From the NCBI GenBank assembly GCA_964498325.1, contig CAZCHF010000001.1:127225-191224 (forward strand): 64,000 nt of DNA, read 5' to 3'. A program made the translations under genes and the position numbers. Source of the stretch: an uncultured Candidatus Kuenenia sp. Its GTDB lineage: Bacteria > Planctomycetota > Planctomycetia > Pirellulales > UBA1268. Positions 6,998-38,481 of this stretch are shown here, one piece after another. Position 1 is the stretch's first letter; every line of letters begins with the position of its first letter. The notes beneath the pieces were generated by a model, which saw only the letters and a program-made list of their open reading frames with translations, searched no databases and was not told the origin of the DNA.

Positions 6998-8725
6998 ATG
7001 CGCCGATGGTTCGCTTTGACTTGCCCGCTGGTCGTTGGTGCGATCCTCACGGCTGTTTCTGGCAGTGCCTTTGGACAGAGCGAGGTATCGTTCCCCGCGG
7101 CTGACTTCGCCAAGCTCGACACGTTCGAGAGCCTGAACCTCGAAGATGCCGACAAGCTCTTCGCGAAGGGCGACTACAAAGGCGCGTTCGCCGCCTACAA
7201 GGCCCACTCGACCGAGTTCACGAAGAGCGCGGCCCTCCCCTACGTGCTTCTCCGCATAGGCCGCTGCCTCCACAAACTCGAGAAGCGAAATGCCGCGATC
7301 CAGGCCTACCAGGAAGTGATCGACTATTTTCCAGATGATGTGGCCTATGCCGCGGCGGCCCTTTACTACATCGGCGAGTGCCACGGCCAAAACGGCGAGG
7401 AATCCAAGCAGACCGCCGCCTGGGCCAAGCTCGCCAAGGACGACGATTACGTGAACCAGCCCCTCTCGGGCACGGCACTCACGTTTTTGGCGTCTCGAAT
7501 GGCCAAGCTCGGCGAGTTCGAAGAGGCCGCCGAGTACCAGTGGCGAACAGCGATCGCTTTTTTGAAATCGAATCCCAAGGCGGCTGCCGAAGGTCGCGAC
7601 GCGGTGATCCAGCACTACGTCGTCCGCAATCCGAATCATGAGAAGCTCGCGGAGTTTTACGTCGCTGTCGGAGGCTTCGACGGCCGCGGTCACAAGATCA
7701 CTGATCCCGAAAAGGATGATCGCTACTGGTCCACCGCTCTGAACGTGGCCAGCAAGGCATCCGGTGAGGCGAAGCCGAAAGCCTGCAGTTACTGGGCCGC
7801 GAAGTTCGGAGACCGGTTTCCAGAGAACGACGGTCTCCGCAAGCTCGCGAGCGACGTCCAGCTCAGTGCCGACGGGAACGAGGAAGCCTGGCGGGCTCGC
7901 CTCGAAAAACAGTTTACCCGAACGCCGGCGACGCTCGACCGAGTCCTCACGTGGTGTGACTGGTACCGGGGAAACCCGGCCGCAGCGAACGAATTTTTCT
8001 CGAAGCACGGCCGGCCGCTGGCTTCAGGCGTCACCGAGATCGCCCAACGGGTGAACCTCGTCGAACGACTCCATCGGCTCGGTCTCAAAGAGGAATCGGT
8101 CGCCGTGCTGCGGTCGACGAAGCTCGAAGGCCTGTCGGACAAGGAACTTGTCGCACTCGCAGGAGTGGCTGCGTTGTCAGAGCCCGAGGAAGGCGTGATG
8201 CGATATTACGCTCGAATCAAGGATCCACTCGTGGCCGCGAAAGGGCGATTCGACTACTACAACGCCCGCACCCACAGGAACCAGCCATTCATGGAGAAGG
8301 CGCTCGCTGAAATAGCCACCCTTGAAAAGTCAACGACGTTTGCCGGTGCCGATCTCTCCTGGGCGAAGGCCGATCTCTTGCGCGGACTGGGCCGTCATGA
8401 AGAAGCAATCAAGGTCTATCGCCAAGTGAATCGGCAGCCCGATTCCACCTGGGCGATCGCAGACTGCCTTGTCGCGCTCAAGATGTATCCCGAGGCCATC
8501 AAGACGGTGGGCGAACTCGAGGCGGTGGGGGGTGATGTCGCTCCGCAAACCGTGCTGAAGGCGGCCAACATCTACAGGGCCGCCGGAGACAAAGGTGGGG
8601 AGGTCAAACAACTCCGCGCCGTTCTCAAGCGATACCCCAAAAGCCGCCAGTCCAGCGAGGCACACAATCGGCTCGAGGCCTACGGCGTTCCCCTCGTCGG
8701 AGGGGAATCGGAAGCCGAGGATTGA
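6998..8725 (+). CDS. Secreted tetratricopeptide-repeat protein (BamD/CpoB-like TPR style)
   Basis: Signal peptide MRRWFALTCPLVVGAILTAVSGSAFG; TPR motifs at both ends (AIQAYQEVIDYFPDD..AALYYIGECH; LRAVLKRYPKSRQSSEA). Confidence 0.85.
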   Translation: MRRWFALTCPLVVGAILTAVSGSAFGQSEVSFPAADFAKLDTFESLNLEDADKLFAKGDYKGAFAAYKAHSTEFTKSAALPYVLLRIGRCLHKLEKRNAAIQAYQEVIDYFPDDVAYAAAALYYIGECHGQNGEESKQTAAWAKLAKDDDYVNQPLSGTALTFLASRMAKLGEFEEAAEYQWRTAIAFLKSNPKAAAEGRDAVIQHYVVRNPNHEKLAEFYVAVGGFDGRGHKITDPEKDDRYWSTALNVASKASGEAKPKACSYWAAKFGDRFPENDGLRKLASDVQLSADGNEEAWRARLEKQFTRTPATLDRVLTWCDWYRGNPAAANEFFSKHGRPLASGVTEIAQRVNLVERLHRLGLKEESVAVLRSTKLEGLSDKELVALAGVAALSEPEEGVMRYYARIKDPLVAAKGRFDYYNARTHRNQPFMEKALAEIATLEKSTTFAGADLSWAKADLLRGLGRHEEAIKVYRQVNRQPDSTWAIADCLVALKMYPEAIKTVGELEAVGGDVAPQTVLKAANIYRAAGDKGGEVKQLRAVLKRYPKSRQSSEAHNRLEAYGVPLVGGESEAED

Positions 8726-8857
8726 AACCAACGCTATACGAACCATCCCGCGTTGTCTTCGTTCGACGGGCCACGAGCGAATGCCCAACCGCTGCACTCA
8801 GTTCGAGCGGGAACTACCATAGAGACTTCTCATCTTTCCCTCAGCAGGCCAAGCCTC

Positions 8858-18786: not shown

Positions 18787-21700
18787 AACGGCATCAGACA
18801 CTTCTGGCAGCGGTGATCTTGGCTGCGCTCATTGCGGTCACGGCTAGTGCCGCGCCGCTCGATGATGCCATGGCCGCGTTCGCCAAGGCGCAGCCCCAGG
18901 GCGAACCCGCGGTCCTCGGCGTCCTCGAAGAAGGCATTCGCGAGGGTCGTTCGGCCCAGGCTTTTGTCACGGTCGCGGCCTGGCTCGACACGCATCCGGT
19001 GACGAACCAGTCGCTTCTCTTCACGGCCGCACGGTCTGCCGAATATGCCGGCGAGTGGTCGGTCGCGGTTTCTTTCTACCGCCAGTTGCTCGAGAACCCG
19101 AAGGCTGATCAACGGCTCGTCGCCGAGGCGGCACCGGCGATCTATCGACTTCTTTTGGGGCCACTTGGCCAAACCGATACGGCCTACCTCTTCATGAAGG
19201 AGCATGGCGATAGGCTGCGAGCCGTCGGCGGCGCGCGACGCTATGACGACTGGTTTCTCGCGACTGCGAAGGCGCGAAACGATGTGCCCGCGGCGTGCGC
19301 TCGTCTTGCCGCGATGTGCCGTGACGGTGCGACCGACCTCGCGGCTCGACGCGACGACTTTGAATGGGTTTGCGAGAAGCTCGAGCCGTATCCATTTGCC
19401 GAAGGTGCCTGGCTCGACGCCGCCGTCAAGCTGGCTTCGGAGCCGAATCTTCCAGCCCCTTTCAAGGCGCGGCTCAACTGGGTGATCGCTATCGGCCCGT
19501 TCACGAAGGAGGCGACCGCGCTCTCTCAGGCCAACAAGCCGATCCCTGATTCGCTGCGCGCCAAGCCACTCGCGGCCGCCAAGGAGCTCATCGCCGCGCT
19601 GCCGATGGAAGGCTCGATCCTCGCGGCCAGGGGCTGGATGGCGTACAGTGGACGTCATACTCCGAGCGTCTGGAACTACATCGCCTCGGGGCGCGAGGCC
19701 AAGGCAGCGCCCATCCTCGAAGCGCTCGCAACGCTTTCGCCGCAACAAGCACACGACGTGTTGACGGCCAAGGGCTGCCCCAGGGGCCGGCCGGTTTCGT
19801 TCATGTTTCTACCGGCAGAGTGGCGGGCACTCGTTGCCAAGGCGCCGGCCCTTTTCAACACGCTTGCCGCGGCGGATGTGCCCCTTCTCGAGAAGACGAT
19901 CACGGTCGACGAGGCCAAGGCCCTTGCACCGCACCTGGCCAGGAATCCACACCGGGACGCCGCCGTGATCCGGGCCATCGCGACGGCGGGGAGCCTCGAG
20001 TTCCCGGCCATCACAGCCGCCATGGCTTCTGAAATGTGGCGGTTCGCCGAACCGCAGGCCGCGATCGAGGCAGCGAAACAGGTCAGTGCCGCCAAGGACC
20101 AGAAAGAGGATCGCGACGCTCTCCAGGCTCTCTCGAAGCCCGACCCACGGGTTTCCAAGATCGAGGCATCTGTCGGCAAGACAGCGTCGCCCCCGGACCG
20201 CGCCGCGGCCTTCCAGGCTCTCTCTCAGGATCTCCTCGGGGCCACTCCCACGATTCCAGGCGCGCTTGCGCTCTGGAACAAGCTTTTCTCGACCGCTCCC
20301 GAAGCAGAATCCGCGGCGATGCTTGCCACTCTCGCGAATAACTCTGGCGGTGACAGTGGGTCGCTCTTCAGGCGTGCTGCAGCCGTCGCAAACCTCGGCG
20401 GCCATGTCCTCTACACGCAAGCCACGCTCACCGACTATTTTCTCAATAACGGCGATCAGCGGCGCCGGTTCGTGACCGCCGCGGCGCCCGTCGTCGCCGC
20501 GATGCAACCGCACCTGGCGGCTCAGGCACAAGCCGGCCGGCTCTCCGAGTATCCGTTTGCCGTCTGGCTACATGCGGCAGATCCGAAAGATCCAGCCACC
20601 CGCGACTTCATGCGACAGCTTGCGGCGTCGCCCGCATACGCAGCCCTGCCCCGGGCGTATCGCGCCGCGGCGAGCGACTCGGTCCACTTTGGTGACATTG
20701 CCTTCACCCCGGCCCAGCGGGCCGTAGCCCCGCGCGATCTCTCTGAACCACTCCTCTCGCTCCCCGCGAACGCACCTCCTGAGGCCGTCGAAGCGGCGCT
20801 CGAAGCCGCCATCCAGCGTGTCGCTGCAGCTCCGCAACCCGTGGCGCTCATCGGCGTCGGCAGGGTGGCCGGCGTGCCCGCCTGGTCACCGAAGCTGCGC
20901 AGTCTCGCCTTCACCCTGTTCCGTGAACACTCGCCCCTCGCGAGCTACCCGGGCGACGCGGGCTACCAGCAGCTCGTCGAGCGGATCTGCCGGGAGTTTT
21001 CCGACGCCAAGCAGTGGCAGGCGATCGAGTCTTATTCCGCAGGCCTCTGGCACGCGGCCGCATCCCTCGACTATGGCAAGCCCCCCCAGGCGGCTGCGGC
21101 ACTCACGAGTTTGGCGGCGTCAGCACTGGAATCAGGAAACCCCTCGGCCGCGCTCACGCTGGCCCGAGACGGATTACGCGGGGCATTCGGCCGCTCGATA
21201 GCCCAGTCGACCGATCCGAATCAGCAGGCACGCCTCGGGCAGCTTCGACGAATCTCGAGCAAGGCGGGCCTCGCGCTCGGTGCTTCCGAGATTCCGGTCG
21301 ACGAGTCGAACCCGGCCTATCCGATCTTCAAGTCGGCCGCCGAGTTTGCCCAGGGCAATCTCGAAGCGGCCTGGAACCTCTACGTCGATCATGCCGATGT
21401 CCTGCCGCAGGCGCTCCGCAAGCTTTCGCCGGACTACGCGTTCTGGCTTCTCGCACGGTGCGTTTCCGAGGGCCGCGCGGCAGATGGCGAAAGCCTGATC
21501 AAAGAACTGAGCCTCTGGTCGCGGGAAGTGCCGGGGCTTCTCAATGCCGACCAAGACGCCAGGCTCAAGATTGCCTACGCCGACGTGTCGTTTCTGCGCG
21601 GCGGCTATCCGACGGCCCGCGCCTGGTATCGCAAGGTCGCCGATGCCGCCGAGTTCAAAAACACCGAGATGCACCTGCTCGCCGGTCTCGGCTCGGCGAA

Positions 21701-26180: not shown

Positions 26181-26418
26181 CGGCGGCATGCTCGGTCGGC
26201 GACAGACCGACCATTCCTGGCTCCAACGAACGCTTCGCGTCCAGTCGATCCCGCCGCGTGGCCACTTGGCCAATACCTCAGGCCTGTAGGCCCATCTACG
26301 ATTGAAACGTCTGGAGAGAAGCCTCTCCACCGTTCGCGTTGAGAGCCAGTGAGGCGGCGATCAATCGTCCATCTGACGGTGTCGGGCTTCGCTCGTAGCC
26401 TTTGTGGGGGAATTCGTC

Positions 26419-27450
26419 ATGTATCCGGCCTTGCGGTCACACGTGGCCAGCCGACGCCAGCGTCACGGCGCGTTTACCTTGGTGGAGCTGTTGGTCGTGA
26501 TTGCGATCATCGCCTTGTTGATCGCGATCCTGATGCCGGCAATCCAATCGGCCCGCGAATCAGGGCGGCGCATCCAGTGCGCCAACCACCTCAAGCAGAT
26601 GGCCCTCGGCTGCCAGCAGCATGTTTCCGCGTATCAGCACTTTCCGACAGGGGGATGGTCGAGTGTCTACGTTGGTGATCCCGATCGAGGGTTTGATGAC
26701 CGTCAACCTGGTGGCTGGGCCTACAACCTTCTGCCGTTCATCGATCAGGCGCCGGCCCATCAGGCGGGAGCTGGCATGGGTGATGCGGACAAGGCCGCCG
26801 CCATCCGTGTTCGCTGCATGACACCGATTGCGACCTACTTTTGTCCCAGCCGTCGATCACCGGGTGCGTTTCGTAGCACAACTGGCTACCGTGGCCCCGT
26901 CAGTGGCTTTTCTCAATCGGCACGGGGAGATTACGCAGGCTGCGCCGGCGTGTGGATGAATGACCCGACGAACGGGGGCCCTGGTAGCTATGCAGATGAA
27001 TTCAGTTATCCGAGCTGGTTCAATTACCATCCACGCATGTTCACCGGAATCTTCTATCAGCGAAGTGCCGTGACGCCCGCCGGGGTACGAGATGGATTGA
27101 GCAATACCCTCCTTCTCGGCGAGAAGTATCTCAACCCGGACGATTACACGAGGAGCAACGTCGGGGGCGACAACAAAAACTATGCCAGCGGTTTTGGGGC
27201 GGAGACACTTCGGGTCGCCGGCAACAGCTCGACTCAACAACTGACTACCGACAGCCAAGCCAGAGTTCCCGTGCAAGACCGCCCTGGCTTCGGTGGCATC
27301 GAGATTTTCGGCAGCGCCCACCCCGGAGGCTTTCAGGCAGCATTCGCCGACGGTGGGGTTCGCTCGGTCGACTACGGCATCGACAAGTACGTGTTTTTTT
27401 ACATGGGCCATCGCGCCGATCGCCAAGTGACCAGCTCGGATGGCTCATGA
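26419..27450 (+). CDS. DUF1559 family protein (prepilin-like N-terminus, H-X9-DG motif)
   Basis: GAFTLVELLVVIAIIALLIAILMPAIQSARESGRRIQCANHLKQ; FGSAHPGGFQAAFADGGV. Confidence 0.92.
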   Translation: MYPALRSHVASRRQRHGAFTLVELLVVIAIIALLIAILMPAIQSARESGRRIQCANHLKQMALGCQQHVSAYQHFPTGGWSSVYVGDPDRGFDDRQPGGWAYNLLPFIDQAPAHQAGAGMGDADKAAAIRVRCMTPIATYFCPSRRSPGAFRSTTGYRGPVSGFSQSARGDYAGCAGVWMNDPTNGGPGSYADEFSYPSWFNYHPRMFTGIFYQRSAVTPAGVRDGLSNTLLLGEKYLNPDDYTRSNVGGDNKNYASGFGAETLRVAGNSSTQQLTTDSQARVPVQDRPGFGGIEIFGSAHPGGFQAAFADGGVRSVDYGIDKYVFFYMGHRADRQVTSSDGS

Positions 27451-28163
27451 TGGTTGTGGGCGCCGCAGCTGGCGGCAGAGCAAAAGAGTTTCTTGAGGCA
27501 AGGGCAATGCACGGCTTGTGGATGCGAATGGCGGCTATGGCATCGACCCTGGGGCTCGTCGTGCCAACGGGTTGCGGCCGGGGGCCTTCGCGGATTCATC
27601 CCCCAACCATCAACGCAACCGTCGCGGGCCAAGCCGCGATGAAGGAGTATGACCGCAACGGCGATGGGGCGGTGGCCGGTGACGAACTTGACAAAGCTCC
27701 GAGCCTGAAGGCGGCCCTCACTATTCTCGATGCCGATTCCGACGGTCGGGTCACCGCCGAGGAGGTCACGGCTCGGATCGAGGCATGGCAGGCTTCCAAG
27801 ATCGGCATGATGTCACAGCGTTGCGAGGTTCTTCTTGACGGGTCGCCGCTCCCAGGGGCTCTCGTGGTCTACGAACCAGAGGCTTTTCTTGGCCCGAACG
27901 TCAAGCCTGCGTCTGGAGTGACCGATGACCTTGGCGTAGCCTTCCTGACCATCGCCGAAAGCGAACGCCCAAACCCGTCCTTTTTTGGGGTCCACTGTGG
28001 CCTCTACCTCGTTCGCATCACGAAGGGCGACCGCGGCCAGCAGGTGCTGCCGGCCGGGTACAACATCGTCACCACCCTTGGCGCCGAAGTGGCCCCTGAC
28101 GCACGGGATGCCGAGACCGGCAGCGTTTTTCGGTTGAATATGGGCGTATCGCCGGCACAGTGA
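27447..28163 (+). CDS. Putative lipoprotein with two EF-hand-like loops and a transthyretin/carboxypeptidase-regulatory-like domain (typical DUF1559 partner)
   Basis: Lipobox-like VVPTGC; DRNGDGAVAGDE and DADSDGRVTAEE; LDGSPLPGALV...SGVTDDLG...GLYLVRI. Start may be downstream of 27447. Confidence 0.75.
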   Translation: MMVVGAAAGGRAKEFLEARAMHGLWMRMAAMASTLGLVVPTGCGRGPSRIHPPTINATVAGQAAMKEYDRNGDGAVAGDELDKAPSLKAALTILDADSDGRVTAEEVTARIEAWQASKIGMMSQRCEVLLDGSPLPGALVVYEPEAFLGPNVKPASGVTDDLGVAFLTIAESERPNPSFFGVHCGLYLVRITKGDRGQQVLPAGYNIVTTLGAEVAPDARDAETGSVFRLNMGVSPAQ

Positions 28164-28324
28164 GCCCCCCGAAAGAGTGGGCCCAATGCATGGGGCTCGG
28201 GCGGGAACTAAGATGGCCGCTCCCTGTCCATCTTGAGCGATCCAAACCCACATATGGCGAAGGCCATCGGCGCAGGTGGGGAGAGCGAGTCACTCCGCCC
28301 CTCCACAAGCGTCAACGAATCGAC

Positions 28325-28669
28325 ATGCCCTCCTTGCCACGCCCAGCCCGCGAACTTTTCTTCCGCGAGACCGGACGGGAGACCGACCCGGAGCTCTGCC
28401 TCCAGAGCCTTACCCGTGTCGATGCCGGGTCGTGGTTCACCAAAACTCCTGCCTGGCTTTGTATCACCGGGGATCGCGTGGTCGTGATCGTTGCCGGCCG
28501 TCGCCACCATGTCGCGAGCATGCCGCGTGCCGCGTGCCGCGGCAGCCGATACGATCACGCCACAGGCGAAGTCGTGATCGAGCCTGGCGATGCCCTCCGG
28601 TTCAATCGCCTCGCCTTCCCGCCACGGGAGGCCCTTCGCATCCTCCAGCTTCTTGGCGTCGAAAACTGA
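28325..28669 (+). CDS. Small hypothetical protein, possibly bacterial PH-like fold
   Basis: ATG 28325; beta-rich (WLCITGDRVVVIV) with a C-terminal amphipathic helix; fills the gap before exbB. Confidence 0.55.
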   Translation: MPSLPRPARELFFRETGRETDPELCLQSLTRVDAGSWFTKTPAWLCITGDRVVVIVAGRRHHVASMPRAACRGSRYDHATGEVVIEPGDALRFNRLAFPPREALRILQLLGVEN

Positions 28670-28735: not shown

Positions 28736-29380
28736 ATGATTGAAACCTTGATTCAGGGCGGGCCGCTGATGATCCCGCTTGTGTTCTGCAGCCTTGCGGC
28801 ACTGGCCGTCGTCTTCGATCGCTGGATGGCCTTTCGGCAGAATTCCAGGGTCGACGTCAAGGCTCTCCGCGCCCGCGTGCTCGCGCACCTCAAGAAGGGT
28901 AGCCTGCCGGCGGCCATAGAAGACTGTGAAACGTCTCGCGGTCCCGTGGCCGCGGTGATGCTCGCAGGCCTGAAGAGCTACTCACATCTCAAGGCCAAGG
29001 GAGAGAACGCCGAGACGATGCGGATGGTCGTGGGCGAAGTGATGCAAGACGCCAGCGCTCAGGCGATGAGCGCCGTGAACAACCGCCTCGACGTCCTCAC
29101 GACCGTAGGCACTGCCGCGCCGCTCTTGGGAATGACCGGCACCGTGACGGGCATGATCGGCTCGTTCGCAAGTCTTGCGGAAGCGGGCAGTTCGGCCGGA
29201 GGTGGTGGCGCCGTGGCCAACGGCATCGCCGAGGCCCTCATTACGACGGCTGCCGGCCTTCTCATCGCCTTGGCCGCGGTGATTCCGCAGAGCCTCTTCA
29301 ATCGGTGGAGCGACGAAATCGAACTCCAAATCGACGAAGCCTCCGCCGAACTCGTCGAACACATCCTCACCAGCCACTAG
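28736..29380 (+). CDS. exbB: MotA/TolQ/ExbB proton channel family protein
   Basis: GGPLMIPL TM1; APLLGMTGTVTGMI and IAEALITTAAGL with conserved Thr residues. Confidence 0.92.
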   Translation: MIETLIQGGPLMIPLVFCSLAALAVVFDRWMAFRQNSRVDVKALRARVLAHLKKGSLPAAIEDCETSRGPVAAVMLAGLKSYSHLKAKGENAETMRMVVGEVMQDASAQAMSAVNNRLDVLTTVGTAAPLLGMTGTVTGMIGSFASLAEAGSSAGGGGAVANGIAEALITTAAGLLIALAAVIPQSLFNRWSDEIELQIDEASAELVEHILTSH

Positions 29381-29463: not shown

Positions 29464-29868
29464 ATGAAACTCCGTGAGAAAAAGAATCGAGAAGGTGGCA
29501 TCCCCACCGACTCGTTTTCCGACATCGCGTTTCTCCTCATCATCTACTTCCTCGTCGCCACGACGCTCGTGCGGGTGCAGGCGATTACCAGCGAGATGCC
29601 GTCGGGTGACAAGGCAGCCCAGGCCCAGTCGGAGAAGACGCCGATCGTGAACCTGCGGGGCGGGCAGATCTTCTTCAACGACGCGCCGGTGACGATCGAA
29701 GCGCTCGAGGAGAGCCTGGCGGCGCTCGACTTGCCGGCCCGGGCCCCGGACAAGCGGGTGGTGATGCTCGAGAGCGCGACCGGCACGCCCTACGACATCT
29801 ATTTCGAGGCCCTCGCGGCGATCAGTGGAAACGGCGGGGTCGTGGCGATGGTGAAACCAGAGAAGTAG
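29464..29868 (+). CDS. exbD: ExbD/TolR family protein
   Basis: SFSDIAFLLIIYFLV TM with the conserved Asp; periplasmic IFFND...VVMLES. Confidence 0.88.
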   Translation: MKLREKKNREGGIPTDSFSDIAFLLIIYFLVATTLVRVQAITSEMPSGDKAAQAQSEKTPIVNLRGGQIFFNDAPVTIEALEESLAALDLPARAPDKRVVMLESATGTPYDIYFEALAAISGNGGVVAMVKPEK

Positions 29869-29872
29869 CCCC

Positions 29873-30313
29873 ATGCCGAAGAATCGCAAACTCGCGAGGC
29901 GGAAGAAGCGGCGGACGGTGCCCGTGCCGACCGCCAGCATGGGCGACATCGCGTTTCTGCTCATCATCTTCTTCCTCGTCTGCAGCGAGACGACGCAGGA
30001 CGCCGCCGACATCCAGGTGACCCTGCCCACGTCGGCGCGGGTCGAGAAGGCGAAGCCCGGCGCCGTCGCCCGAGTCGCCATCGACAAGGACGGCCAGATC
30101 TATTTCAACGGCGGCCGTGTCGAGTCCGCCAAGGATGTCGAACTGGGAATCAGTGCACTCGTGACCCGAACGGTGTCGGAGGACCAGCGGCACGTCCAGT
30201 TCCGCTGCGATGCCGGCGTCACCAATGACATTTTCGAACCAGTCTTGACTGCCATCGCCGAGGGCGGAGGCATCCTCAGCGCCATAGGAACCAAAAAGGA
30301 GAGCACACCATGA
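29873..30313 (+). CDS. exbD: ExbD/TolR family protein (second copy)
   Basis: SMGDIAFLLIIFFLV; VAIDKDGQIYFNG; VQFRCD. Confidence 0.9.
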   Translation: MPKNRKLARRKKRRTVPVPTASMGDIAFLLIIFFLVCSETTQDAADIQVTLPTSARVEKAKPGAVARVAIDKDGQIYFNGGRVESAKDVELGISALVTRTVSEDQRHVQFRCDAGVTNDIFEPVLTAIAEGGGILSAIGTKKESTP

Positions 30314-30801
30314 GTGCCACACGTCGATCGAGTGCCGAGCCCGAGGATCTCATGCGGGATTTTCGAGGTGGCGGGCTTATGCGGTTTGCGATCTTGGCGC
30401 TGGTCGTCCATGCGATCGTGATCCTCGCCACGAGCATTCCCTGGCTTCGGGAGACCTTCATGGGGTCGGCGACCGCAGGCATGACCGAAGAGGAAAAGCT
30501 CGAGGCCGCGGTCCGCGAGGCGACCTCGAAGATCTCGGCCATCGCCAAGGAACATGGCGTGTCGCCACTCGAACTCGGGGCCCGCTTCGGCGGTAACGGT
30601 AAGTCATCGACGTCGGCGAGCAAGGCGCCAGCCGACAAGCCGAAGGCACCGGCTCCTGGAACAACTCCTGCCGCGCCGGCCGCCACTGAGACACCAGCAG
30701 GTCAGACGCCGCCCGCTGACACGCCGCCAACGGCTGCCCCGCCCGTCCCGCCCGGCCCGTCGCTGCCCGCGGTGGATGACAACGTGGATCTCTTCAAGTA
30801 G
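30310..30801 (+). CDS. Single-TM protein with TM His and Pro/Ala/Thr-rich tail; TonB/TolA-like N-terminal half without a TonB C-terminal domain
   Basis: ATGA overlap with exbD; FAILALVVHAIVILATSIPW; tail APAPGTTPAAPAATETPAGQTPPADTPPTAAPPVPP. Confidence 0.65.
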   Translation: MSATRRSSAEPEDLMRDFRGGGLMRFAILALVVHAIVILATSIPWLRETFMGSATAGMTEEEKLEAAVREATSKISAIAKEHGVSPLELGARFGGNGKSSTSASKAPADKPKAPAPGTTPAAPAATETPAGQTPPADTPPTAAPPVPPGPSLPAVDDNVDLFK

Positions 30802-30828
30802 CAACGCCATCGTCAGCCCGAGTTCCCC

Positions 30829-32451
30829 GTGATGACCACCGCCAGCCCGGACTTCGAGACCGGGACGATCGACGCGATTCCAACCGCGCCGTCCGTCGCG
30901 AAAGCGACGGTGGTGGCGATCGGTGGCGTGCTGGCCGGGCTGATCGGAATCGCGGCCTGGTGGTTTTTGCCCGCTGCCCTGGAGAAAGTGCTCGCGGCCA
31001 ATCCTTCGATCGCCGGGCTCTTCGGACGAAACCTGGTCGCCGTGCTCGCGAAGGGATGTTTTCTCGCGGCCGTGGCCGTCGGTGGCCTCTGCATCGCCGC
31101 GGGCCTGCTCGCCCTGGTGCGATCCCGGGCCACGTGGTGGTTGTTGTTCCTCGCCGTCGCAACCATCCATGTCGTGGCAGTGGGCTTCGTGGGCACGGCC
31201 TGGTATGCCACGTCCACGATCCTGTCGGCGGGTCTTCAGATCGATGGGACTGACCAGGACAAGGTCACGCTGACGCTGCTCTGGTGGAAGCTCGCCTGGC
31301 CGGCACTCGCCATGATGGTGGCCGCTGCCTGGATGCAGACGATGCTCCGGAGCCGGTCGGTCTACGCCGCGTTCACCGGCAGCGAGGGGGAGCCGCTTCG
31401 TGGTGACGAGACGCTCGAGAATCTTCGCACCGGTGGCCGCGATCCGCGGCACCGCAAGAGTCTCTATGCCAGTGGACTCACGCATCTGCTCGTAATCGTC
31501 GTGATTCCCTGGCTCATGCAGATGGACGGCTGCGTGGAGCCCTACCGCGTGCCGAAAGGGAGCGGCAACCCGGTGGTCGCCATCGTGAAGATGGTCAAGC
31601 CGAAGAAGAAAAAGAAAAAGAAATCGATCACTGTCAATCCGAACTCGGCCATCGTCTTCGAGAAGCCCGACCTCGACCACACCGAGGCGGATGAAGAGAT
31701 GAAGGAGATGACCGAACACAAGTACGAGGTGGCCGCGACCAGCGGCGCGACCGGCAACCTCGGCAAGGGAGGAGGCACCGAAGGGGGTTGGCCCGAGGGC
31801 ATGGAGGATTACAAGATCCGGTTCATCCGGCTCGATCACGGCGGGTCCGGCTGGGACGACGGCATGGACGAAACCGGGGCCGACATCAACTTCCTTCGCG
31901 AGTTCGCCCAGGCCACCGGCTTCAAAAAGATCGCCCGCAGCGGCGAGAGCCACTCGATCGCACTCCTTCGAAAGTATCCCCGCGACGGGTTTCCGCCGTT
32001 CGTGTACCTCACCGGCAACGGTGCCATGGGCCGCACGACGCCGTCGGACGACAAGATCCTGCGTGAGTATTGCCTTGGCGGCGGTCTTCTCATCGCCGAC
32101 GCCGGCAGCCTCGCCTTCGACCAGTCGTTCCGGCACTTCATCCATAAGGTTTTTCCGGACAAGCCCCTGGTCGACATCGCCGACGACGATGAGCTCTACC
32201 GGCTCCCGTTCATGTTTCCCGATGGCGCGCCGGCCTTTTGGCACCACGGCGGCAGGCGTGCCCTCGGGATCAAGCACGAGGGACAGTGGGTGGTCTTCTA
32301 TCACCCGGGCGACATGAACGATGCCTGGAAGTCGCCGGGCTACACCGATGTGTCTCCCGAGATGCGGGCCAGCGCCATGCATCTTGGCATCAACCTCGTG
32401 CGGTATGCCTTCGACCGCTGGAACGACGCCGTGGCCAAGGCGGGGAAATGA
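30829..32451 (+). CDS. Polytopic membrane protein with a TonB-like SxxxH TM and a C-terminal DUF4159 domain
   Basis: About 5 TM segments; SGLTH; K-rich linker; C-terminal FIRLDH...NFLREF...PFVYLTG...LREYCLGGGLLIADA...LGINLVRYA typical of DUF4159. Confidence 0.8.
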   Translation: MMTTASPDFETGTIDAIPTAPSVAKATVVAIGGVLAGLIGIAAWWFLPAALEKVLAANPSIAGLFGRNLVAVLAKGCFLAAVAVGGLCIAAGLLALVRSRATWWLLFLAVATIHVVAVGFVGTAWYATSTILSAGLQIDGTDQDKVTLTLLWWKLAWPALAMMVAAAWMQTMLRSRSVYAAFTGSEGEPLRGDETLENLRTGGRDPRHRKSLYASGLTHLLVIVVIPWLMQMDGCVEPYRVPKGSGNPVVAIVKMVKPKKKKKKKSITVNPNSAIVFEKPDLDHTEADEEMKEMTEHKYEVAATSGATGNLGKGGGTEGGWPEGMEDYKIRFIRLDHGGSGWDDGMDETGADINFLREFAQATGFKKIARSGESHSIALLRKYPRDGFPPFVYLTGNGAMGRTTPSDDKILREYCLGGGLLIADAGSLAFDQSFRHFIHKVFPDKPLVDIADDDELYRLPFMFPDGAPAFWHHGGRRALGIKHEGQWVVFYHPGDMNDAWKSPGYTDVSPEMRASAMHLGINLVRYAFDRWNDAVAKAGK

Positions 32452-33719
32452 CGATGCAGTGGGATTGGAACTCCTTTGGCGCGGTCGGATACCTCGGGGT
32501 CGTGGTGTCGTTCGTGGTGCCCGTGCTCTGGGTGATCGGCCGGCTGCGCAAGGGAAACCCACGGCTGTTGGTGACGGCCGTGGGCATCGCGGGGATCGCC
32601 GCTCTCTGTGGCCAGATCAACTCCACCTTCCATGTGAATGCACTCGAACCCGACCGCTCGGCCGTGGAGGCGGCGGCGAAGGCAGCGGCCGAGGAACTCC
32701 ACAAGCGGAAGCTCGCCGCGATCGATGCCACCCGTGAGCAGGCGGCGGCCGACATCCGCTTCGCTGAGGATGCCAAGGACGACTCGCTCGACAAGGCCGG
32801 GCTCGACGATGGCGATCTCAAGTACCTCGAGCAGATCGAGGCGGAAGAGTCGGCGGCGACGCCTGAATGGAAGAAGAAAAAGAAAACCCGTGGCGAGGGA
32901 GGCACGCCCGACGACAGCCTCGAAGCCGAGCTCGATGGCGACAAGAACCCAGCCGGCATGGCGTCCGGGTCGACCACGGAGGAATCGAAGCGTCCAGCGA
33001 TCGTCGTCTCCGAAGCCGCCTACTCGACCGCCCACCGCGTCGACCGCTGGAACCTCTGGTGGACGAGATTCTTGGTGGTCGCTGCGATGGCCATCCTGGG
33101 GTACGACTGGCTCCGTGCTGCGAACGACTACGCGCGGGCCTACTCGCCGCTGCGAGTACCGAGCACCCTCGTCAATGCCATGAGGCCTCTTGCCCCGCTC
33201 ACGATCCGACCGGAGCCGCCGCGCCGCTCCATGCCCGAGGAACTCGCGTGGTTTCTCCGCCGTGGCGATTCGTTCGTCTACCTTGCGGGCACGGCTGACG
33301 CGGCCGACCGAGCGGAGGCCGCGCTCGCAACGTTTGAAAAACAAAGGCATCCGGTGCAGGTCTTGCGAGTCGGCCCAAAGGGGGAGCGGTGCAGCAACCG
33401 CTTCGTGTTTGAGGCGGTTTGGTTCGGACGATGTTCGTTCATCATCGCCGACCCCGCCCGGGCCGAGCGTCTCGTGAAGGAATTCTGTATCTTCCTGGAA
33501 GAGCGGAGAGGGACGCGGGCACAGGCGCGGCAGACGGTGCATGTCGTTTGGGACCTTGCCGGCGCCGTGCCTCGCGACAAAGTTCCGGCCTTTGTCGAAG
33601 CATGGAAAAAACTGATCCAGGCTCTGGCGTGGCGCGGAAAGCACGCGGGTTTTTCGGTGTTTCTCTCTCGGCAGCCTGAGCCGACAACCACCTCAACGAA
33701 GGCGGAGAACGCAGCATGA
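32448..33719 (+). CDS. Hypothetical membrane protein (about 3 TM, long acidic loop with a poly-Lys tract, C-terminal alpha/beta domain)
   Basis: ATG 32448 overlaps the upstream TGA (ATGA); stop overlaps the next ATG. Confidence 0.75.
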   Translation: MTMQWDWNSFGAVGYLGVVVSFVVPVLWVIGRLRKGNPRLLVTAVGIAGIAALCGQINSTFHVNALEPDRSAVEAAAKAAAEELHKRKLAAIDATREQAAADIRFAEDAKDDSLDKAGLDDGDLKYLEQIEAEESAATPEWKKKKKTRGEGGTPDDSLEAELDGDKNPAGMASGSTTEESKRPAIVVSEAAYSTAHRVDRWNLWWTRFLVVAAMAILGYDWLRAANDYARAYSPLRVPSTLVNAMRPLAPLTIRPEPPRRSMPEELAWFLRRGDSFVYLAGTADAADRAEAALATFEKQRHPVQVLRVGPKGERCSNRFVFEAVWFGRCSFIIADPARAERLVKEFCIFLEERRGTRAQARQTVHVVWDLAGAVPRDKVPAFVEAWKKLIQALAWRGKHAGFSVFLSRQPEPTTTSTKAENAA

Positions 33720-36700
33720 TGATCATCAGAATCGGCCACTTTCTGGGACTTGCCGTCGTCACGGCCATGGTCATGGCCACCACGACCACGGCGCTGGCCG
33801 ACGACGAGCGAGAAGTCACCGAAGAGCAGAAGGCCGCGGTGGCTGGAGCAGTCGACGAGACGGAGAAGCCCACCCGTCCCGACGAACTACCCGACTTCAC
33901 GAAGGGGGCGCCCGTTTCCGCCGAGATGCAGGTATGGAGCCTCGGGCCGACCGGTATGGTCGGCGTCTGGGCCGGTGGTTTTGGAGGTGATCAATTCCTG
34001 GTTCAGACCGTTCTGCCGGGCTCACCGGCCGTAGGCAAGATCCTTCCAGGCGACGTCCTGTTGGGCTTGAACGGGACGCCTTTCAAGGCAGGTGGCCACC
34101 TCGGCGTCCTCTTCGGCAACGCGATCATCGAAGCTGAAAAGGAAGAGAACGGCGGGAAGCTCGCACTCTCGGTCTGGCGCGACCGCAACTATCCCAAGCG
34201 GAACGCGACGCTCGACACCGACCGCGTGAACCTCGAAGAGGTGTTTAAGTCGGCCGAAGACGGCGATGCGCTCTATGACTGGAAGGCCGTGGAGGAGAAG
34301 AAGGCCGAAACGGCCCGCCAGAAATTCGACGAGTTTCCAATCGACGGCTTCACGCTCGATGTGGAACTGAAGCTCAGAACGTTTCCTGCGTACGCCGATA
34401 CCGCGCCCTTCGACTGCCCGAAGACGATGGCGATTCTCGAAGACGCCTGGAAGGTGCTGGAAAAGAAATTCACCAAAGACCCCAAGGTTCCGAACTCGGG
34501 TCGCGGCGGGACGACCGAGGCGCTGGCCCTTTTGGCGTCAGGCAAACCCGAGCACCGCAAGCTCGTGCATGACTGGGTGCGGAGCCCCCACTGCAAACAG
34601 TGGCAGCCAGAATTTGCCGGCTCGATCGACATGATGAAGCCTCCAGGCGGGAAGCTTACTTGGACCGTCGGGTTCGTGGGACTTCCCTGCGCGATCTACT
34701 ACGACTGCACGGGAGACGAGTACGTGCTTCCGGCCTTGAAGGAATGGGCCGTGAAGACCGCCATGGGCCAGAGCGGCGGCGGCACGTGGGGCCACACCTT
34801 CGCCTGGCCGATGTTTAACGGCGGTAAACTTCACGGATCCAATCCAGGATACGGCGGGTTGAATTGCGCGGGAGTCCACTGCTTCTTCCTCCTGGCCCTC
34901 GCCAAGAAGCATGGCATCGAGCACCCTGAAATTGATGCGGCGATCGCACGTTCGCACCGATTCTACAGCTCTTTCGTCGACCAGGGAGCCATCGGGTATG
35001 GCGACCATCCCGCCGCCGATACCGACGACAGCAATGGAAAAAACGCGGGCACTGCCTTTGCGATGAAGCTCATCGGCGATACGTATGCGGCAAAATACTT
35101 CGCAACGATGTCTGCCCACGCGTCGTTCACTGCCCGCGGCTGCCATGGCCACGATTGGCATACCAACTGGTCCTGTTGGGCTGCGAGCCTCGTCGGCGAC
35201 GAGGCGAGGATCGCCGCCGAGCGCAACATGCGGTGGCGCCGAACGCTCTGCCGTCGCCATGACGGCAGCTTCGTGTACCACTCGCCTTCTATTAAACACA
35301 GAACCCTCCGCGACCCAACCGCGACGGAGGTGCTCCATCAGGCGGTTGCCCTGCGGCAGACGCTCATCACCGGCAAGGACCCGGACAAGAGCCTCTGGCT
35401 CAATGACCGGGAATTCAAGCACCTGATGGCAAGCGCCCAGGGTCAATTCAACGACCCCGTGCTCGACGCGAAGGTGGGCACGCCGTGGCCTCAGAGGTCG
35501 ACTGACGAACTCTTCGACCTGCTTGACATATTCATGCCGAAGACCCGGCGCTTTGTGGCGGCAGAGTTGGGCAAGCGATTCAAGGGAGGCGAGAAGGAGA
35601 TTGCGCCGCGGCTTCTCGCGCTTCTTGAAAGCGACAATCCGCGACTGCGGGATGGCGGCCTGCGGGGTCTCCATTTCTGCGGGCCTGACACCGTCTTGGC
35701 GAACCTCTCGACGATCACGAAGAGGCTCAATGACTCGCACGACTTCGTTCGCAAGACGGCCGTGGGCGTCGTCGAGGTCGCGGCGATGAAGACCGACACG
35801 CAAGAGGCGCTCCTTGCGGCCGCCGCCGCGGATCCCAAAGCGATGGCTCCAAACAGCGTCCGCAACGACATCCAGCTGTCGCTGTTCGCCGGCGACACGC
35901 CACTGGCCAAGTCGCCGTTCAAGGCCGGCTTTGACGAGCGGCTCGTCCGCGACGCCATCGACGGCCTCCTGACGCTCGACCCGGTCGGTGGCAGAGGGTT
36001 CCTGGCCTCACGGATCAACGTCTGGGACAGGGACACGGTCGTGCGGCTGGCCAGCCCTCTGGTATTCATCGCCGAAGAGGAACAGGTCAATGACACGATG
36101 TTCGCCGGCCGTGTGAAGCCGGCTCGCGCAATCCTCCAACGGCACGATTTTCGCGAAGGCTTTGATGGCGCCTTGTACTTGCTCAGGCGGCAGGCCGCCC
36201 TCCCGCGGCATGTGCGCCCGTATGTGACCATGAGGTATTCGATTCTCGATCCCATGCTCGTCAAAAAGCATCCGGGAGTGTTCCGGGACTTCATGCCGGC
36301 ATTCCACACCGTGCTCATCGACAATCCGGTCGCGACCGTCACGGAAACGCATGGCACGCTGAAAATCGAAGTGCCCTTGTTCAGCTTCCTTTCGTTGATC
36401 GCCGCGGCACCGCCTGTCTCGCCGAAGCCGAGCATCGAAGAGGAGGTTCGGCGCGTGTTCACGGCAAAGCTCGAGGCTGCCGGCAGCGCGGATGCCAAGC
36501 TCGCTCTGTGCCGCGCAACGCTTGCCGACGATTCCCACCGCACGACGTTTGAATGTCTGGCAGCCATGGACTATCTCGTGCAGACGATCGGCAACGAGGC
36601 ACTCGATGACCTTCTGCCGCTCTTCGGCCGGAACGACTGGCGGGTGCGAGATCATGCCAGGGCCAAAGCGGCTGAGCTTGCCAGCAAGGATGGTGGCAAG

Positions 36701-37690
36701 GCGCTCGTTTCGCGATTCGTTGCGGCAAAGGACGATGATATCCGAGTCGGGATCTTGCACGCGCTCGGGGCAAGTCAGAGCAAGGCCGGCCTGGTTGTCG
36801 CAACGTCGGCGCTTGAGGACGCCAGCCCAGCCGTGCGCGGCGCGGCTGCCGAGGCCGTCGTGGCCATCGGAGGCGACGCATCGCTCGAACCCGTCCTTGC
36901 ACACTTCAAGACGGCGTCGGCGCCCGACGATCTGCGCGGTTGCGAAAAGGCGATCCTGGCCCTCCGTGCGTCTCCGTCGCTCGCGTCCCAGATTCGCGAC
37001 GCGCTCATTGCAGGACTGCCGCAGACCGAGGGCACCAGACGAGAATCGGTCTTGTGGCTGCTCGGCCAGATCGGTGATGCGCCGAGCCTCGCTGTCCTCG
37101 AGAAGGCCGGGGCCACCAAGGTCGCGGCGGATTTCCGCGTGGTCGTCAATGCCCTTTCCTATTCTCCCGCGATCGAGGCTGATGCCGTGCTGCTCAGGCT
37201 TGCCAAGTCCGACAAGGCCAAGGCGCCGATCGTCGCCGCCGAGAGTGTTCGGCGGATGGTGCTCGGTCCGAAGGGCTTTGGTGATCGTACGGACGATCAG
37301 CGAATCGCGTTCGCAGGTGGCATCCTGCAACTCGCAAGCGACGTCCGCCTCGTGACGTTCTTGGGCCGCATGGGGTCACCCCGTGCCATGCCGCTCTTGG
37401 TGACCGAGCTTCGCAAGGGGTTCAAGCCTGCCGCAGAGAGTGTCGTCACGAATGCCGAAGCGATGAAAAATCTGCCGCCAGCCGATGCCGCGATCGTGGC
37501 CCAGGCACTTCGGGACGTCATGGAGTATCTCGAGGTGACCGCGCTTCGGGGTGGCCCCGATGGGAAGGATTTTCGTGAGTATCCGGTCGCCAAGGCGCTC
37601 CAGGCCCGCGCCGGCCAGGCGCTCGTGAAGGTCCATAAGCCCGAGGCGGCTCCCATCCAAGGTTTTCAGGGAATCGACATCGATCTATGA
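33716..37690 (+). CDS. Secreted PDZ-like + DUF6288-like (alpha/alpha barrel) + HEAT-repeat protein
   Basis: Signal peptide; LGPTG...VLPGSPAVGKILPGDVLLGLNG (PDZ); APFDCPKT, GQSGGGTWGH, GYGGLN, GAIGYGDH, DSNGKN, GCHGH pattern recalled for DUF6288; C-terminal HEAT repeats. Confidence 0.75.
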   Translation: MMIIRIGHFLGLAVVTAMVMATTTTALADDEREVTEEQKAAVAGAVDETEKPTRPDELPDFTKGAPVSAEMQVWSLGPTGMVGVWAGGFGGDQFLVQTVLPGSPAVGKILPGDVLLGLNGTPFKAGGHLGVLFGNAIIEAEKEENGGKLALSVWRDRNYPKRNATLDTDRVNLEEVFKSAEDGDALYDWKAVEEKKAETARQKFDEFPIDGFTLDVELKLRTFPAYADTAPFDCPKTMAILEDAWKVLEKKFTKDPKVPNSGRGGTTEALALLASGKPEHRKLVHDWVRSPHCKQWQPEFAGSIDMMKPPGGKLTWTVGFVGLPCAIYYDCTGDEYVLPALKEWAVKTAMGQSGGGTWGHTFAWPMFNGGKLHGSNPGYGGLNCAGVHCFFLLALAKKHGIEHPEIDAAIARSHRFYSSFVDQGAIGYGDHPAADTDDSNGKNAGTAFAMKLIGDTYAAKYFATMSAHASFTARGCHGHDWHTNWSCWAASLVGDEARIAAERNMRWRRTLCRRHDGSFVYHSPSIKHRTLRDPTATEVLHQAVALRQTLITGKDPDKSLWLNDREFKHLMASAQGQFNDPVLDAKVGTPWPQRSTDELFDLLDIFMPKTRRFVAAELGKRFKGGEKEIAPRLLALLESDNPRLRDGGLRGLHFCGPDTVLANLSTITKRLNDSHDFVRKTAVGVVEVAAMKTDTQEALLAAAAADPKAMAPNSVRNDIQLSLFAGDTPLAKSPFKAGFDERLVRDAIDGLLTLDPVGGRGFLASRINVWDRDTVVRLASPLVFIAEEEQVNDTMFAGRVKPARAILQRHDFREGFDGALYLLRRQAALPRHVRPYVTMRYSILDPMLVKKHPGVFRDFMPAFHTVLIDNPVATVTETHGTLKIEVPLFSFLSLIAAAPPVSPKPSIEEEVRRVFTAKLEAAGSADAKLALCRATLADDSHRTTFECLAAMDYLVQTIGNEALDDLLPLFGRNDWRVRDHARAKAAELASKDGGKALVSRFVAAKDDDIRVGILHALGASQSKAGLVVATSALEDASPAVRGAAAEAVVAIGGDASLEPVLAHFKTASAPDDLRGCEKAILALRASPSLASQIRDALIAGLPQTEGTRRESVLWLLGQIGDAPSLAVLEKAGATKVAADFRVVVNALSYSPAIEADAVLLRLAKSDKAKAPIVAAESVRRMVLGPKGFGDRTDDQRIAFAGGILQLASDVRLVTFLGRMGSPRAMPLLVTELRKGFKPAAESVVTNAEAMKNLPPADAAIVAQALRDVMEYLEVTALRGGPDGKDFREYPVAKALQARAGQALVKVHKPEAAPIQGFQGIDIDL

Positions 37691-38481
37691 GGCGCGGCCC
37701 GCCATTGACACTGGATCTCTCCATCAGCAAATACGGTGAAGGGCCACCGCTGATCGTCCTGCACGGTCTCTTCGGTTCCAAACGAAACTGGGCAACGGTC
37801 GCCCATCGAATGGCCATTGGCCGCCGTGTGATCACGGTCGATCTGCGCAACCACGGCGAAAGCCCCTGGAGCGATGGCTGTGACTACCCGGCGATGGCCG
37901 ACGATGTTGCCCGCGCGATCGATCGACACGCCGGCGGCCATGCCGCGGTCCTCGGCCACAGCATGGGGGGCAAGGTCGCGATGGTGCTGGCCCTATCGCA
38001 CCCCGAGCTCGTCGATCGTCTGATCATCGTCGACATCGCACCGACACGTTCTACGGCCACGCCGATCGAGTTCGTGCGGGCGATGCGAGCCCTGCCGCTC
38101 GAGTCATTCACCAGCCGGCTCGAGATCAAGGAGGCCCTCGCCGCAGCCATTCCTGACCCTGCGGTTCGTGGATTCCTCACGCTCAACGTGATCCCCACAA
38201 CTGACGGTCTCGCCTGGACGGTCAACCTGGCCGCCATCGAGAACCACTTCGAAACCATCCTCGGTTTCCCGGTCGTCCCACCAGGCACATCCTTCCAGAA
38301 GCCGACACTCTTCATCGCCGGCGGCAAGTCTGCCTATCTCCAACCGCGGCATCACGCGGAGATCATGCGACTCTTTCCGGCGGCCACGATCGACGTGATC
38401 GAACAGGCGGGCCATTGGATTCATGCCGATGCCCCCGAAGCCTTCGTCGCCTCTGTCAACGCGTTTCTCGGTCCGGGATGA
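37687..38481 (+). CDS. Alpha/beta hydrolase (YbfF/ABHD11-like esterase)
   Basis: LHGLFGSKRNW, GHSMGG nucleophile elbow, AGHWIH. Confidence 0.88.
   Translation: MRRGPPLTLDLSISKYGEGPPLIVLHGLFGSKRNWATVAHRMAIGRRVITVDLRNHGESPWSDGCDYPAMADDVARAIDRHAGGHAAVLGHSMGGKVAMVLALSHPELVDRLIIVDIAPTRSTATPIEFVRAMRALPLESFTSRLEIKEALAAAIPDPAVRGFLTLNVIPTTDGLAWTVNLAAIENHFETILGFPVVPPGTSFQKPTLFIAGGKSAYLQPRHHAEIMRLFPAATIDVIEQAGHWIHADAPEAFVASVNAFLGPG

Follow-up and report, generated by a model that had tools for sequence, protein, structure and literature searches.

Which task could call for a proton motor to be encoded together with giant exported repeat proteins is the question raised by a gene cluster of an uncultured Candidatus Kuenenia sp. 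(Planctomycetota; GenBank assembly GCA_964498325.1, contig CAZCHF010000001.1, positions 127,225 to 191,224). The cluster lies at 6998-38481 of this stretch of 64,000 nucleotides, referred to below as the window. An earlier note on this DNA described 15 co-directional genes with seven ATGA overlaps and proposed that they encode an undescribed trans-envelope machine driven by the proton motive force; the coordinates and domains agree with the open reading frame (ORF) listing, the translations and Pfam scans, and each overlap was found where the note had placed it. Twelve of these genes, G1-G4 and G7-G14 (Table 1), form what sequence comparison identifies as one operon, and their products probably make up an inner-membrane-anchored machine in which proton flow drives force transduction. 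The class of mechanism that we infer, in which a motor would act through transducers with a His-bearing membrane helix on a periplasmic scaffold, receives good support from the conservation of the genes and from their recurrence in distant relatives.

Motors of the ExbBD/TolQR family energise the periplasm and outer membrane of double-membraned bacteria, and their understood uses are few, namely Ton, Tol-Pal and Agl-Glt, with the GldLM family standing apart. The operon described here is large, tightly conserved and abundant in aquatic metagenomes, and it occurs in an ecologically important superphylum (Planctomycetes-Verrucomicrobia-Chlamydiae, PVC) whose envelope biology is poorly understood. 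It offers a defined parts list, testable point mutants and cultured hosts (for example Haloferula helveola and Rubritalea profundi), as well as the first functional context for the domains DUF4159 and DUF6288. Moreover, it broadens the recent proposal that TonB-like anchors carry interchangeable heads.

Gene order, distribution and distant relatives

Relatives of the operon were collected by two routes. An alignment of 20 G12 relatives (A1) and a pattern scan in which each GTDB species was represented by one genome yielded 80 loci, which were taken with flanks of 10 kb and compared with the window proteins by tblastn, presence being counted only among loci whose contig reaches the gene in question. 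A metagenome scan with the alignment of G2 gave 80 further loci. In the GTDB loci the order G4-G7-G8-G9-G10-G11-G12-G13-G14 recurs on one strand (counts in Table 1). The upstream half was read in the metagenome loci, where G1 is present in 70 of the 80 and G3 and G4 in 65 each, the order G1-G2-G3-G4 being kept without exception; in 70 of these loci, as in Haloferula, G1 immediately precedes G2. The same four-gene order was reached through relatives of G2 in Haloferula helveola and in one 4-Mb ENA contig. Haloferula carries the full operon in one strain, as G1, G2, G3, a PDDEXK_3 gene, G4, G7, G8, G9, G10, G11, G12, G13, a gene for an FAD oxidoreductase, and G14, the two additional genes being lineage-specific. 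Because one gene order recurs in about 160 independent loci of Planctomycetota, Verrucomicrobiota, Kiritimatiellia and Lentisphaeria, the arrangement is far from chance, and the synteny on which the earlier note's proposal depended holds well beyond the window.

This comparison also redraws the borders of the system, from 15 genes to 12 that are syntenic; G5, G6 and G15 are excluded. G5 and G6 lie on a 2.15-kb insertion between G4 and G7, recognized as such because in the related locus L002 the stop codon of G4 abuts the start of G7. Their GC content at third codon positions is 0.67-0.70, against 0.73-0.87 for the operon genes. G6 has no relatives in the 160 related loci, and the sole match of G5 among them (L070) is on the opposite strand, near the end of the locus and outside the operon. 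Both were rejected as components, being absent from the operon at every other locus. G15 was likewise rejected, since it is linked only in the close relatives L001, L002 and L004 and does not follow G14 in Haloferula. A search for a conserved gene downstream of G14 found none.

Table 1. Features of the window; presence is given for the GTDB loci that reach the gene
Feature	Position	Strand	Product	Family or remark	Presence
G1	6998-8725	+	exported TPR protein, 575 aa	Pfam TPR families; YbgF/CpoB-type TPR segment	
G2	8858-11185	+	exported TPR protein, 775 aa	Pfam; central beta-rich inserts, C-terminal YbgF/BamD-like TPR region	
G3	11182-18786	+	giant exported TPR protein, suggested beta-sandwich inserts, 2534 aa	Pfam TPR in N-terminal, middle and C-terminal parts	
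G4	18783-26180	+	giant exported TPR protein, suggested beta-sandwich inserts, 2465 aa	G3 paralogue	57/58
Insertion	26181-28324		carries G5 and G6	outside system	
G5	26419-27450	+	pseudopilin-like protein	DUF1559 and N_methyl prepilin motif; outside system	
G6	27447-28163	+	EF-hand lipoprotein	outside system	
G7	28325-28669	+	small cytoplasmic protein, 114 aa	no family; lacks a transmembrane helix	61/62
G8	28736-29380	+	TolQ/ExbB-family proton-channel subunit, 214 aa	Pfam MotA_ExbB, E 3.7e-25	63/63
G9	29464-29868	+	first TolR/ExbD-like subunit, 134 aa	Pfam ExbD	65/65
G10	29873-30313	+	second, different TolR/ExbD-like subunit, 146 aa	Pfam ExbD	68/69
G11	30310-30801	+	putative head-less TonB/TolA-like transducer with His34 transmembrane helix	no Pfam or NCBIfam family	71/75
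G12	30829-32451 (probable ATG 30832)	+	putative second transducer with predicted periplasmic DUF4159	Pfam DUF4159, E 7e-29	
G13	32448-33719	+	membrane protein, 423 aa, about 3 predicted transmembrane helices	no family	77/77
G14	33716-37690	+	exported PDZ-like/DUF6288/HEAT protein, 1324 aa	Pfam DUF6288, E 8e-85; HEAT_2	63/66
G15	37687-38481	+	alpha/beta hydrolase	Pfam Abhydrolase_1; outside system	
ORF	643-3042		799 aa	no Pfam match; neighbour is a SASA esterase	
DUF1559 gene	4876-6081			second DUF1559 gene of the window	
FloA-NfeD pair	53146-59136	-	flotillin-like FloA and NfeD protein of 1417 aa	about 990 N-terminal NfeD residues without Pfam match	
Three ORFs	60340-63712		365, 267 and 421 aa	no Pfam match; 3' end of window	

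The hosts are labelled as Pirellulales, Pirellulaceae, Phycisphaerae, Verrucomicrobiales/Akkermansiaceae, Opitutae, Kiritimatiellia and Lentisphaeria/Victivallales, with a few bins that seem mislabelled. Identity between phyla is about 70% for G2, 68% for G8, 60% for G12 and 52% for G14. A neighbour-joining tree of G8, G10 and G12 separates a Planctomycetota clade, a group of Lentisphaeria and Kiritimatiellia, and Verrucomicrobiae; because this largely matches the phylum boundaries, it fits an operon that is old within PVC and mostly vertically inherited. The clade of the window (with L002 and L003) neighbours an Opitutae sequence in that tree, apart from other Planctomycetota. Because the window operon groups with Opitutae though its flanks are planctomycete-typical, a possible horizontal acquisition of the whole operon, about 29 kb without the insertion, is suggested for the window lineage. 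The pattern scan found only 130 relatives among about 186,000 species genomes, so that the distribution within PVC is patchy rather than universal.

More distant relatives were sought by comparing the G12 profile with 1.84 billion representative proteins. It matched 231 clusters at E <= 1e-30, many of which comprise proteins of 330-400 aa that do not have the four-helix bundle of G12 (see below). All eight short DUF4159 relatives inspected have a single S-x3-H helix, a basic stretch and then DUF4159. Their gene contexts include two ExbD genes followed by a 146-aa protein and DUF4159 (P0445), ExbD with a 176-aa protein and DUF4159 (P0465), and ExbD with a 122-aa protein and DUF4159, with MoxR and DUF58 genes 2-3 kb downstream (P0468). 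A longer context (P0488, L170 525-12632) comprises a tetratricopeptide repeat (TPR) protein, a 2602-aa giant TPR protein of G3/G4-like type with a discoidin domain (F5_F8_type_C), ExbB, one ExbD, a 147-aa protein, DUF4159 and a G1-like TPR protein. The order of ExbD(s), a protein with a His helix and tail, and DUF4159 was found in all four distant contexts that reach far enough. The small proteins encoded 5' of DUF4159, where their sequences could be read, are built like G11, with one His helix, a low-complexity linker and an acidic tail, and S-x3-H is present in three of four. A further variant (P0401, L168 1-7949) has two tandem G12 paralogues, a weakly related G13-like gene and, at the position of G14, a 1389-aa HEAT protein with two PA14 domains.

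Between these and the window stands a divergent subfamily (L156-L163, 38-48% identity) that carries G1, G2, a giant TPR gene, G7, G8, G9, G10 and a G11-like gene, with a single giant of 2599 aa instead of the G3/G4 pair (for example L158 8284-22098). Because these gene sets recur in the distant relatives and in the divergent subfamily, the core module consists of a giant TPR protein, ExbB, ExbD(s), a head-less His-helix protein and a His-helix DUF4159 protein.

Motor, transducers and scaffold

The motor set recognized in the earlier note, one MotA_ExbB protein and two ExbD proteins beside two proteins with a His-bearing transmembrane helix, is borne out by Pfam and by the conserved residues. 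The best NCBIfam match of G8 is tolQ, with 109 bits (cut-off 221), followed by exbB with 67 bits (cut-off 206), and G9 and G10 reach 20-28 bits against the tolR and ExbD equivalogs, whose cut-offs are 123-216. Because these scores lie far under every TolQ, ExbB, TolR and ExbD equivalog cut-off, the motor is classed as a separate subfamily. The G8 motifs LLGMTGTVTGM and TTAxGL are essentially invariant, as are the Thr-rich helices; Thr134, Thr136, Thr138, Thr170 and Thr171 are kept in 63-64 of 64 sequences. Asp20 in the transmembrane helix of G9 is conserved in 67 of 69 sequences, with gaps in the other two, and Asp25 of G10 (69 of 70) is invariant apart from gaps. G9 and G10 are paralogues with 32% identity, each with its own orthologues. 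The motor thus retains the Asp and Thr residues of the proton path.

G11 consists of a charged cytoplasmic N-terminus, the transmembrane helix with His34, a short helix, a linker (residues ~100-150) rich in Pro, Ala and Thr, and a C-terminal tail. His34, Ser42 and the D-[LI]-F tail are each kept in 65 of 65 sequences, and Thr stands at position -4 of His34 in 61 of the 65. In G12, Ser215 and His219 are invariant in alignment A1. Its AlphaFold2 (AF2) model (mean predicted local distance difference test score, pLDDT, 64.6) has a confident four-helix bundle (23-174), the His helix (208-232), a disordered stretch (232-317) that is Lys-rich with a poly-Lys run, and an alpha/beta head. Foldseek gives the head a single significant match, the DUF4159 structure 4i66 (E 2.8e-5), and the same unannotated structure is the sole match of G12 in a PDB sequence search. 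The head is placed in the periplasm because of the positive-inside rule, and the model gives G12 a layout like that of TonB, in which a helix is followed by a disordered linker and then a globular head. Both proteins carry the S/T-x3-H anchor of TonB/TolA transducers and an extended linker of the same type, Pro-rich in G11 and disordered in G12. Neither has a match to the TonB C-terminal domain or TolA domain III (PF03544, PF06519, PF13103), and G11 matches no Pfam or NCBIfam family. The conserved His and these negatives agree with the earlier description of two anchors that resemble TonB/TolA and lack the TonB C-terminal domain.

The four TPR proteins, two of them giant, were also correctly recognized, as Pfam TPR matches occur in G1-G4; signal peptides and lipobox cysteines were assessed by eye alone. 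Segments of YbgF/CpoB type are found in each of the four. G1 reaches 66 bits against NCBIfam tol_pal_ybgF, under the cut-off; G2 scores 103 bits against ybgF over three stretches and 82 bits against BamD; the C-terminal TPR of G3 is of ybgF type (68 bits). G2 has 418 relatives with E <= 1e-5, the best 120 of which, Verrucomicrobia among them, are 65-93% identical, and the mean column identity in its alignment (A6) is 74%. G3, which has ATGA overlaps with both G2 and G4, is a full-length paralogue of G4 (33% identity), and a PDB sequence search with it returned designed TPR proteins only. The non-TPR inserts of G2-G4 are suggested to be beta-sandwich domains because of weak MG2 and S-layer immunoglobulin (Ig)-like matches. 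For the "Ig" that the earlier note assigned to the giants, these comprise MG2 (E 0.0017) and a region of G4 (residues 1680-1807) like the Kustd1514 S-layer protein (36.9 bits), and nothing stronger was found.

The last exported component, G14, is modelled by AF2 (pLDDT 82.5) as a signal peptide, a small beta domain (~75-160), an all-alpha domain (~235-550) of 12-13 helices that corresponds to DUF6288, and a HEAT solenoid to residue 1200. The "PDZ" of the earlier note is weak by sequence (E about 0.003), but the AF2 model has the small beta domain at the same position. A PDB sequence search with G14 gave only designed HEAT repeats and weak PDZ domains, and Foldseek returned HEAT solenoids only, which swamped the list. 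The two best-conserved loops of DUF6288 (354-384 and 474-485) are of low confidence in the model. Acidic/hydrophobic motifs are conserved near the C-termini of G11 (158-163, D-[LI]-F(K)) and G14 (1301-1324, PIPxFDxLDLD), and because such tails are the kind of peptide bound by TPR or PDZ domains, a tail-to-groove contact network inside the complex is suggested. Altogether the periplasmic scaffold proteins total about 7,700 residues.

Two further components complete the set. G7, whose true start was set by alignment, is a real and conserved component with invariant Asp33, Gly35, Trp37, Arg60, Tyr76 and Gly81 (alignment A5); it has no match in Pfam, NCBIfam or PADLOC. In G13 the middle region is charged and the weakly conserved C-terminal domain (about 190 aa) is probably cytoplasmic, the topology of the protein being deduced from charge distribution only. 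Among the remoter loci of alignment A4 the identity of G13 is 32-43%, and it has no PDB or Pfam match. For both G7 and G13, scanning the orthologues member by member against Pfam gave noise.

Proposed mechanism and alternative explanations

In the proposed mechanism G8, a pentamer by analogy, and a G9/G10 heterodimer would form a stator of TolQR/ExbBD type in which proton flow is converted into movement. G11 and G12 would dock on this stator through their S/T-x3-H transmembrane helices, as TonB and TolA do. From there, G11 would enter the periplasm as a Pro-rich rod ending in the acidic D-[LI]-F tail and G12 by a Lys-rich flexible linker with the DUF4159 head, and the two would exert a pull on, or reshape, a very large assembly that G1-G4 and G14 form in the periplasm. 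G7 and the C-terminal domain of G13 would be found at the cytoplasmic face, where they might regulate the machine or connect its parts. The gene set with its order and conservation, and the conserved residues, are observed; stoichiometry, docking of the helices on the motor, the scaffold as load and protein topology are the parts of this scheme that we infer. As to its role, we favour, with low confidence, structural work or transport inside the envelope, comparable to that of Tol or the Glt core and perhaps acting on a glycan polymer, over nutrient import of the TonB type.

Several observations weigh against a proton-driven force-transduction machine of this kind. The patchy spread in PVC weakens any essential housekeeping role, and no outer-membrane or peptidoglycan-binding component is encoded in the operon. 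Judged by sequence, G7 and G13 have no recognisable relatives, and the DUF6288 fold was matched to no enzyme family by the PDB sequence search or by Foldseek of the G14 model. In the window's G11, moreover, Ala stands in place of Thr or Ser four residues before the His, and of the SHLS motif both G11 and G12 keep the later L and S positions only in part. The term "trans-envelope" used in the earlier note is not sustained, as no outer-membrane barrel or lipoprotein is encoded and no lipobox cysteine was seen in G1-G4 or G14.

A wider interpretation is that the operon represents a distinct class of proton-motor envelope machine, confined to PVC as sampled, that would stand beside Ton, Tol-Pal and Agl-Glt. 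In it a periplasm-spanning scaffold of about 7,700 residues would be driven by DUF4159-headed and head-less transducers for a task that has no counterpart in model bacteria; this is put forward tentatively, as a possibility that may well prove wrong. Such a task could be, for example, the movement or uptake of large glycans without a TonB-dependent receptor, or the holding or remodelling of the unusual PVC envelope. DUF4159 would then be a general force-receiving head domain, an idea in line with its fusion to an S-x3-H helix beside ExbD genes in distant systems.

DUF4159 proteins often sit in MoxR/DUF58/vWA ("Bat"-type) clusters. The operon shares the domain with these clusters but ties it to a proton motor, and MoxR, DUF58 and vWA are absent from the operon, from the scanned window ORFs and from the 10-kb flanks in Haloferula, the only such genes being those near P0468. 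A closer parallel in composition is offered by loci of PVC bacteria whose vWA proteins, as in Tichowtungia aerotolerans, were recently proposed as a new class of force transducer (PMC12204202, Mol Biol Evol 2025). The same His contacts the stator in the structures of ExbBD-TonB and TolQRA, and the same contact was predicted for the vWA transducers (PMC12204202). These loci and the operon have in common TPR proteins, a TolQ-like protein, two different TolR-like proteins and His-helix transducers (here G1-G4, G8, G9, G10, G11 and G12), as well as the same group of phyla, and neither has an established function. In contrast to the vWA head there, G11 has no head and G12 has DUF4159. G12 shows no vWA match by Pfam or Foldseek, and homology to Tichowtungia transducer 1 was rejected (hhalign probability 0.8% against the G12 profile). 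G12 also has the extra four-helix membrane bundle, and the paper mentions no pair of 2,500-aa TPR proteins, no G7 or G13 and no DUF6288/HEAT protein (PMC12204202).

A Tol-like role is the strongest specific alternative. Here the motor would be a functional counterpart of Tol-Pal in lineages where that system is absent or incomplete, and would lend stability to the outer membrane, constrict it, or coordinate the synthesis of wall during division. The higher score of G8 against TolQ than against ExbB argues for it, as do the YbgF/CpoB-type TPR segments of G1-G4, the TolA-like His-helix anchors with extended linkers, and an order of small gene, tolQ-like, tolR-like and tolA-like genes that echoes ybgC-tolQRA; in addition, no pal was found in Planctomycetes (PMC12204202 supplement). 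Against it, the same supplement reports tolB-pal in members of Lentisphaeria and Kiritimatiellia, in other genomes than those carrying the operon, so that the operon occurs in groups that do have tolB-pal in some members. Furthermore, there are two TolR-like genes here, not one, every tol equivalog score is far under its cut-off, TolA domain III is lacking, and no TolB or OmpA/Pal domain was found in the operon, the scanned long window ORFs or the Haloferula locus. Together with the patchy distribution, this makes a Tol-Pal counterpart somewhat unlikely.

The earlier note had also likened the set to the Myxococcus Agl-Glt machine, aptly in terms of composition. The Glt "core complex" cluster comprises aglR, aglQ and aglS, the TPR genes gltC, gltD and gltE, and the TonB-like gltG (PMC3169522), and thus the same combination as in the operon, where some TPR proteins are giants: one TolQ-like and two TolR-like proteins, one or more that resemble TonB, and several exported TPR proteins. 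A machine of Agl-Glt/Nfs type would move a surface or envelope complex, in gliding, polymer surface transport or adhesion, and gliding was suggested by the authors for the sister vWA loci (PMC12204202). However, GltG carries FHA and TonB_C domains, both lacking in G11 and G12; no Glt-like outer-membrane barrel or adhesin is encoded; the host phyla differ; and DUF4159, DUF6288/HEAT, G7 and G13 have no listed Glt counterpart. NCBIfam scans gave no Glt-named match. Most of the host groups are not known to glide. Finally, the function of the ancestral Glt core is not known, and the core alone does not drive motility according to Luciano et al. (PMC3169522). This explanation is accordingly regarded as unlikely.

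No description of the operon was found in the searchable literature, nor any discussion of DUF4159 or DUF6288 in the literature searched. The machine may in this sense be called undescribed, as the earlier note did, but it is not without precedent, given the same parts list in the Glt core (PMC3169522) and the vWA transducers.

Coupling of the proton motive force to polysaccharide capture or import into the periplasm, the first of the earlier note's suggestions, is indirectly favoured by the discoidin domain that one distant variant carries in its giant TPR protein and by the two PA14 domains in the HEAT protein of another. Discoidin and PA14 domains commonly bind carbohydrate, and many host lineages degrade polysaccharides. 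The glycan ligand could equally be peptidoglycan or a surface polymer of the cell itself, and the proteins of the window have no carbohydrate-binding modules. Since the conserved set also includes neither an outer-membrane channel nor a sugar-degrading enzyme, and the flanking genes vary between genomes and are not conserved sugar-degradation loci, import is considered quite improbable.

Still less probable, to the point of being very hard to reconcile with the gene order, is that G8-G10 are a plain ExbBD energiser for TonB receptors encoded elsewhere and that their neighbours are unrelated passengers. Pfam does place G8-G10 in the ExbB and ExbD families, the 5:2-type motor family, the S-x3-H anchor helix and the Pro-rich linker of G11 are shared with Ton, and cross-talk with other partners is possible. 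Against it stand the strict order of 12 genes across four phyla, the scores far under the ExbB and ExbD cut-offs, and the adjacent His-helix proteins, which co-vary with the motor even in distant systems. In agreement with the earlier note, the window has no gene for a TonB-dependent receptor, TonB_C, TolB, Pal, MoxR or vWA among the approximately 21 long ORFs scanned, smaller ORFs being left out, and neither TonB_C nor a TonB receptor was seen in any locus with Pfam-labelled gene calls. Zorya uses MotAB-like proteins, but an anti-phage defence of that kind has nothing beyond the presence of a MotA/ExbB-family gene in its favour and is hardly credible: G7-G14 gave no PADLOC match, for which the defence reading was rejected, the conserved set lacks nuclease and helicase effectors, the branching of the tree mostly agrees with the division into phyla, and most of the protein mass is exported scaffold.

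Surrounding genes and lineage-specific insertions

The other long ORFs of the window that were scanned are planctomycete-typical and include DUF1559, DUF1549/DUF1553, DUF1501, FloA with NfeD, and an S26 peptidase. The flotillin-like FloA gene adjoins the very long NfeD gene, and several ORFs towards both ends of the window have no Pfam match (Table 1). A promoter and terminator scan gave matches no more frequent than in shuffled sequence and is uninformative for this organism.

Small PDDEXK_3 genes occupy differing intergenic sites of the operon, namely the G3/G4 junction in Haloferula and its relatives and the G10/G11 junction in others (L081 20122-20505; L044 and L045 ~8980-9354; L051 2444-2809; L060 2837-3202; starts of L028 and L030). 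The gene looks like a small mobile gene that tolerates life inside operons. The gene for a 556-aa FAD-dependent oxidoreductase lies between G13 and G14 in Haloferula and in two metagenome-assembled genomes of Verrucomicrobiales/Akkermansiaceae (L164 12824-14494; L021 12833-14449; L024 5643-7280), and a related gene is found upstream of G1 in L099 and L145. A divergent ThuA-family gene stands upstream of G1 in Haloferula and in the ENA contig, in the latter as a fusion with DUF7133 and HEAT (L081 6137-7180; L082 566-1609; L083 4538-7867, minus strand); it is not present in the window. In L104, L112 and L139, G14-like HEAT matches occur upstream of G1.

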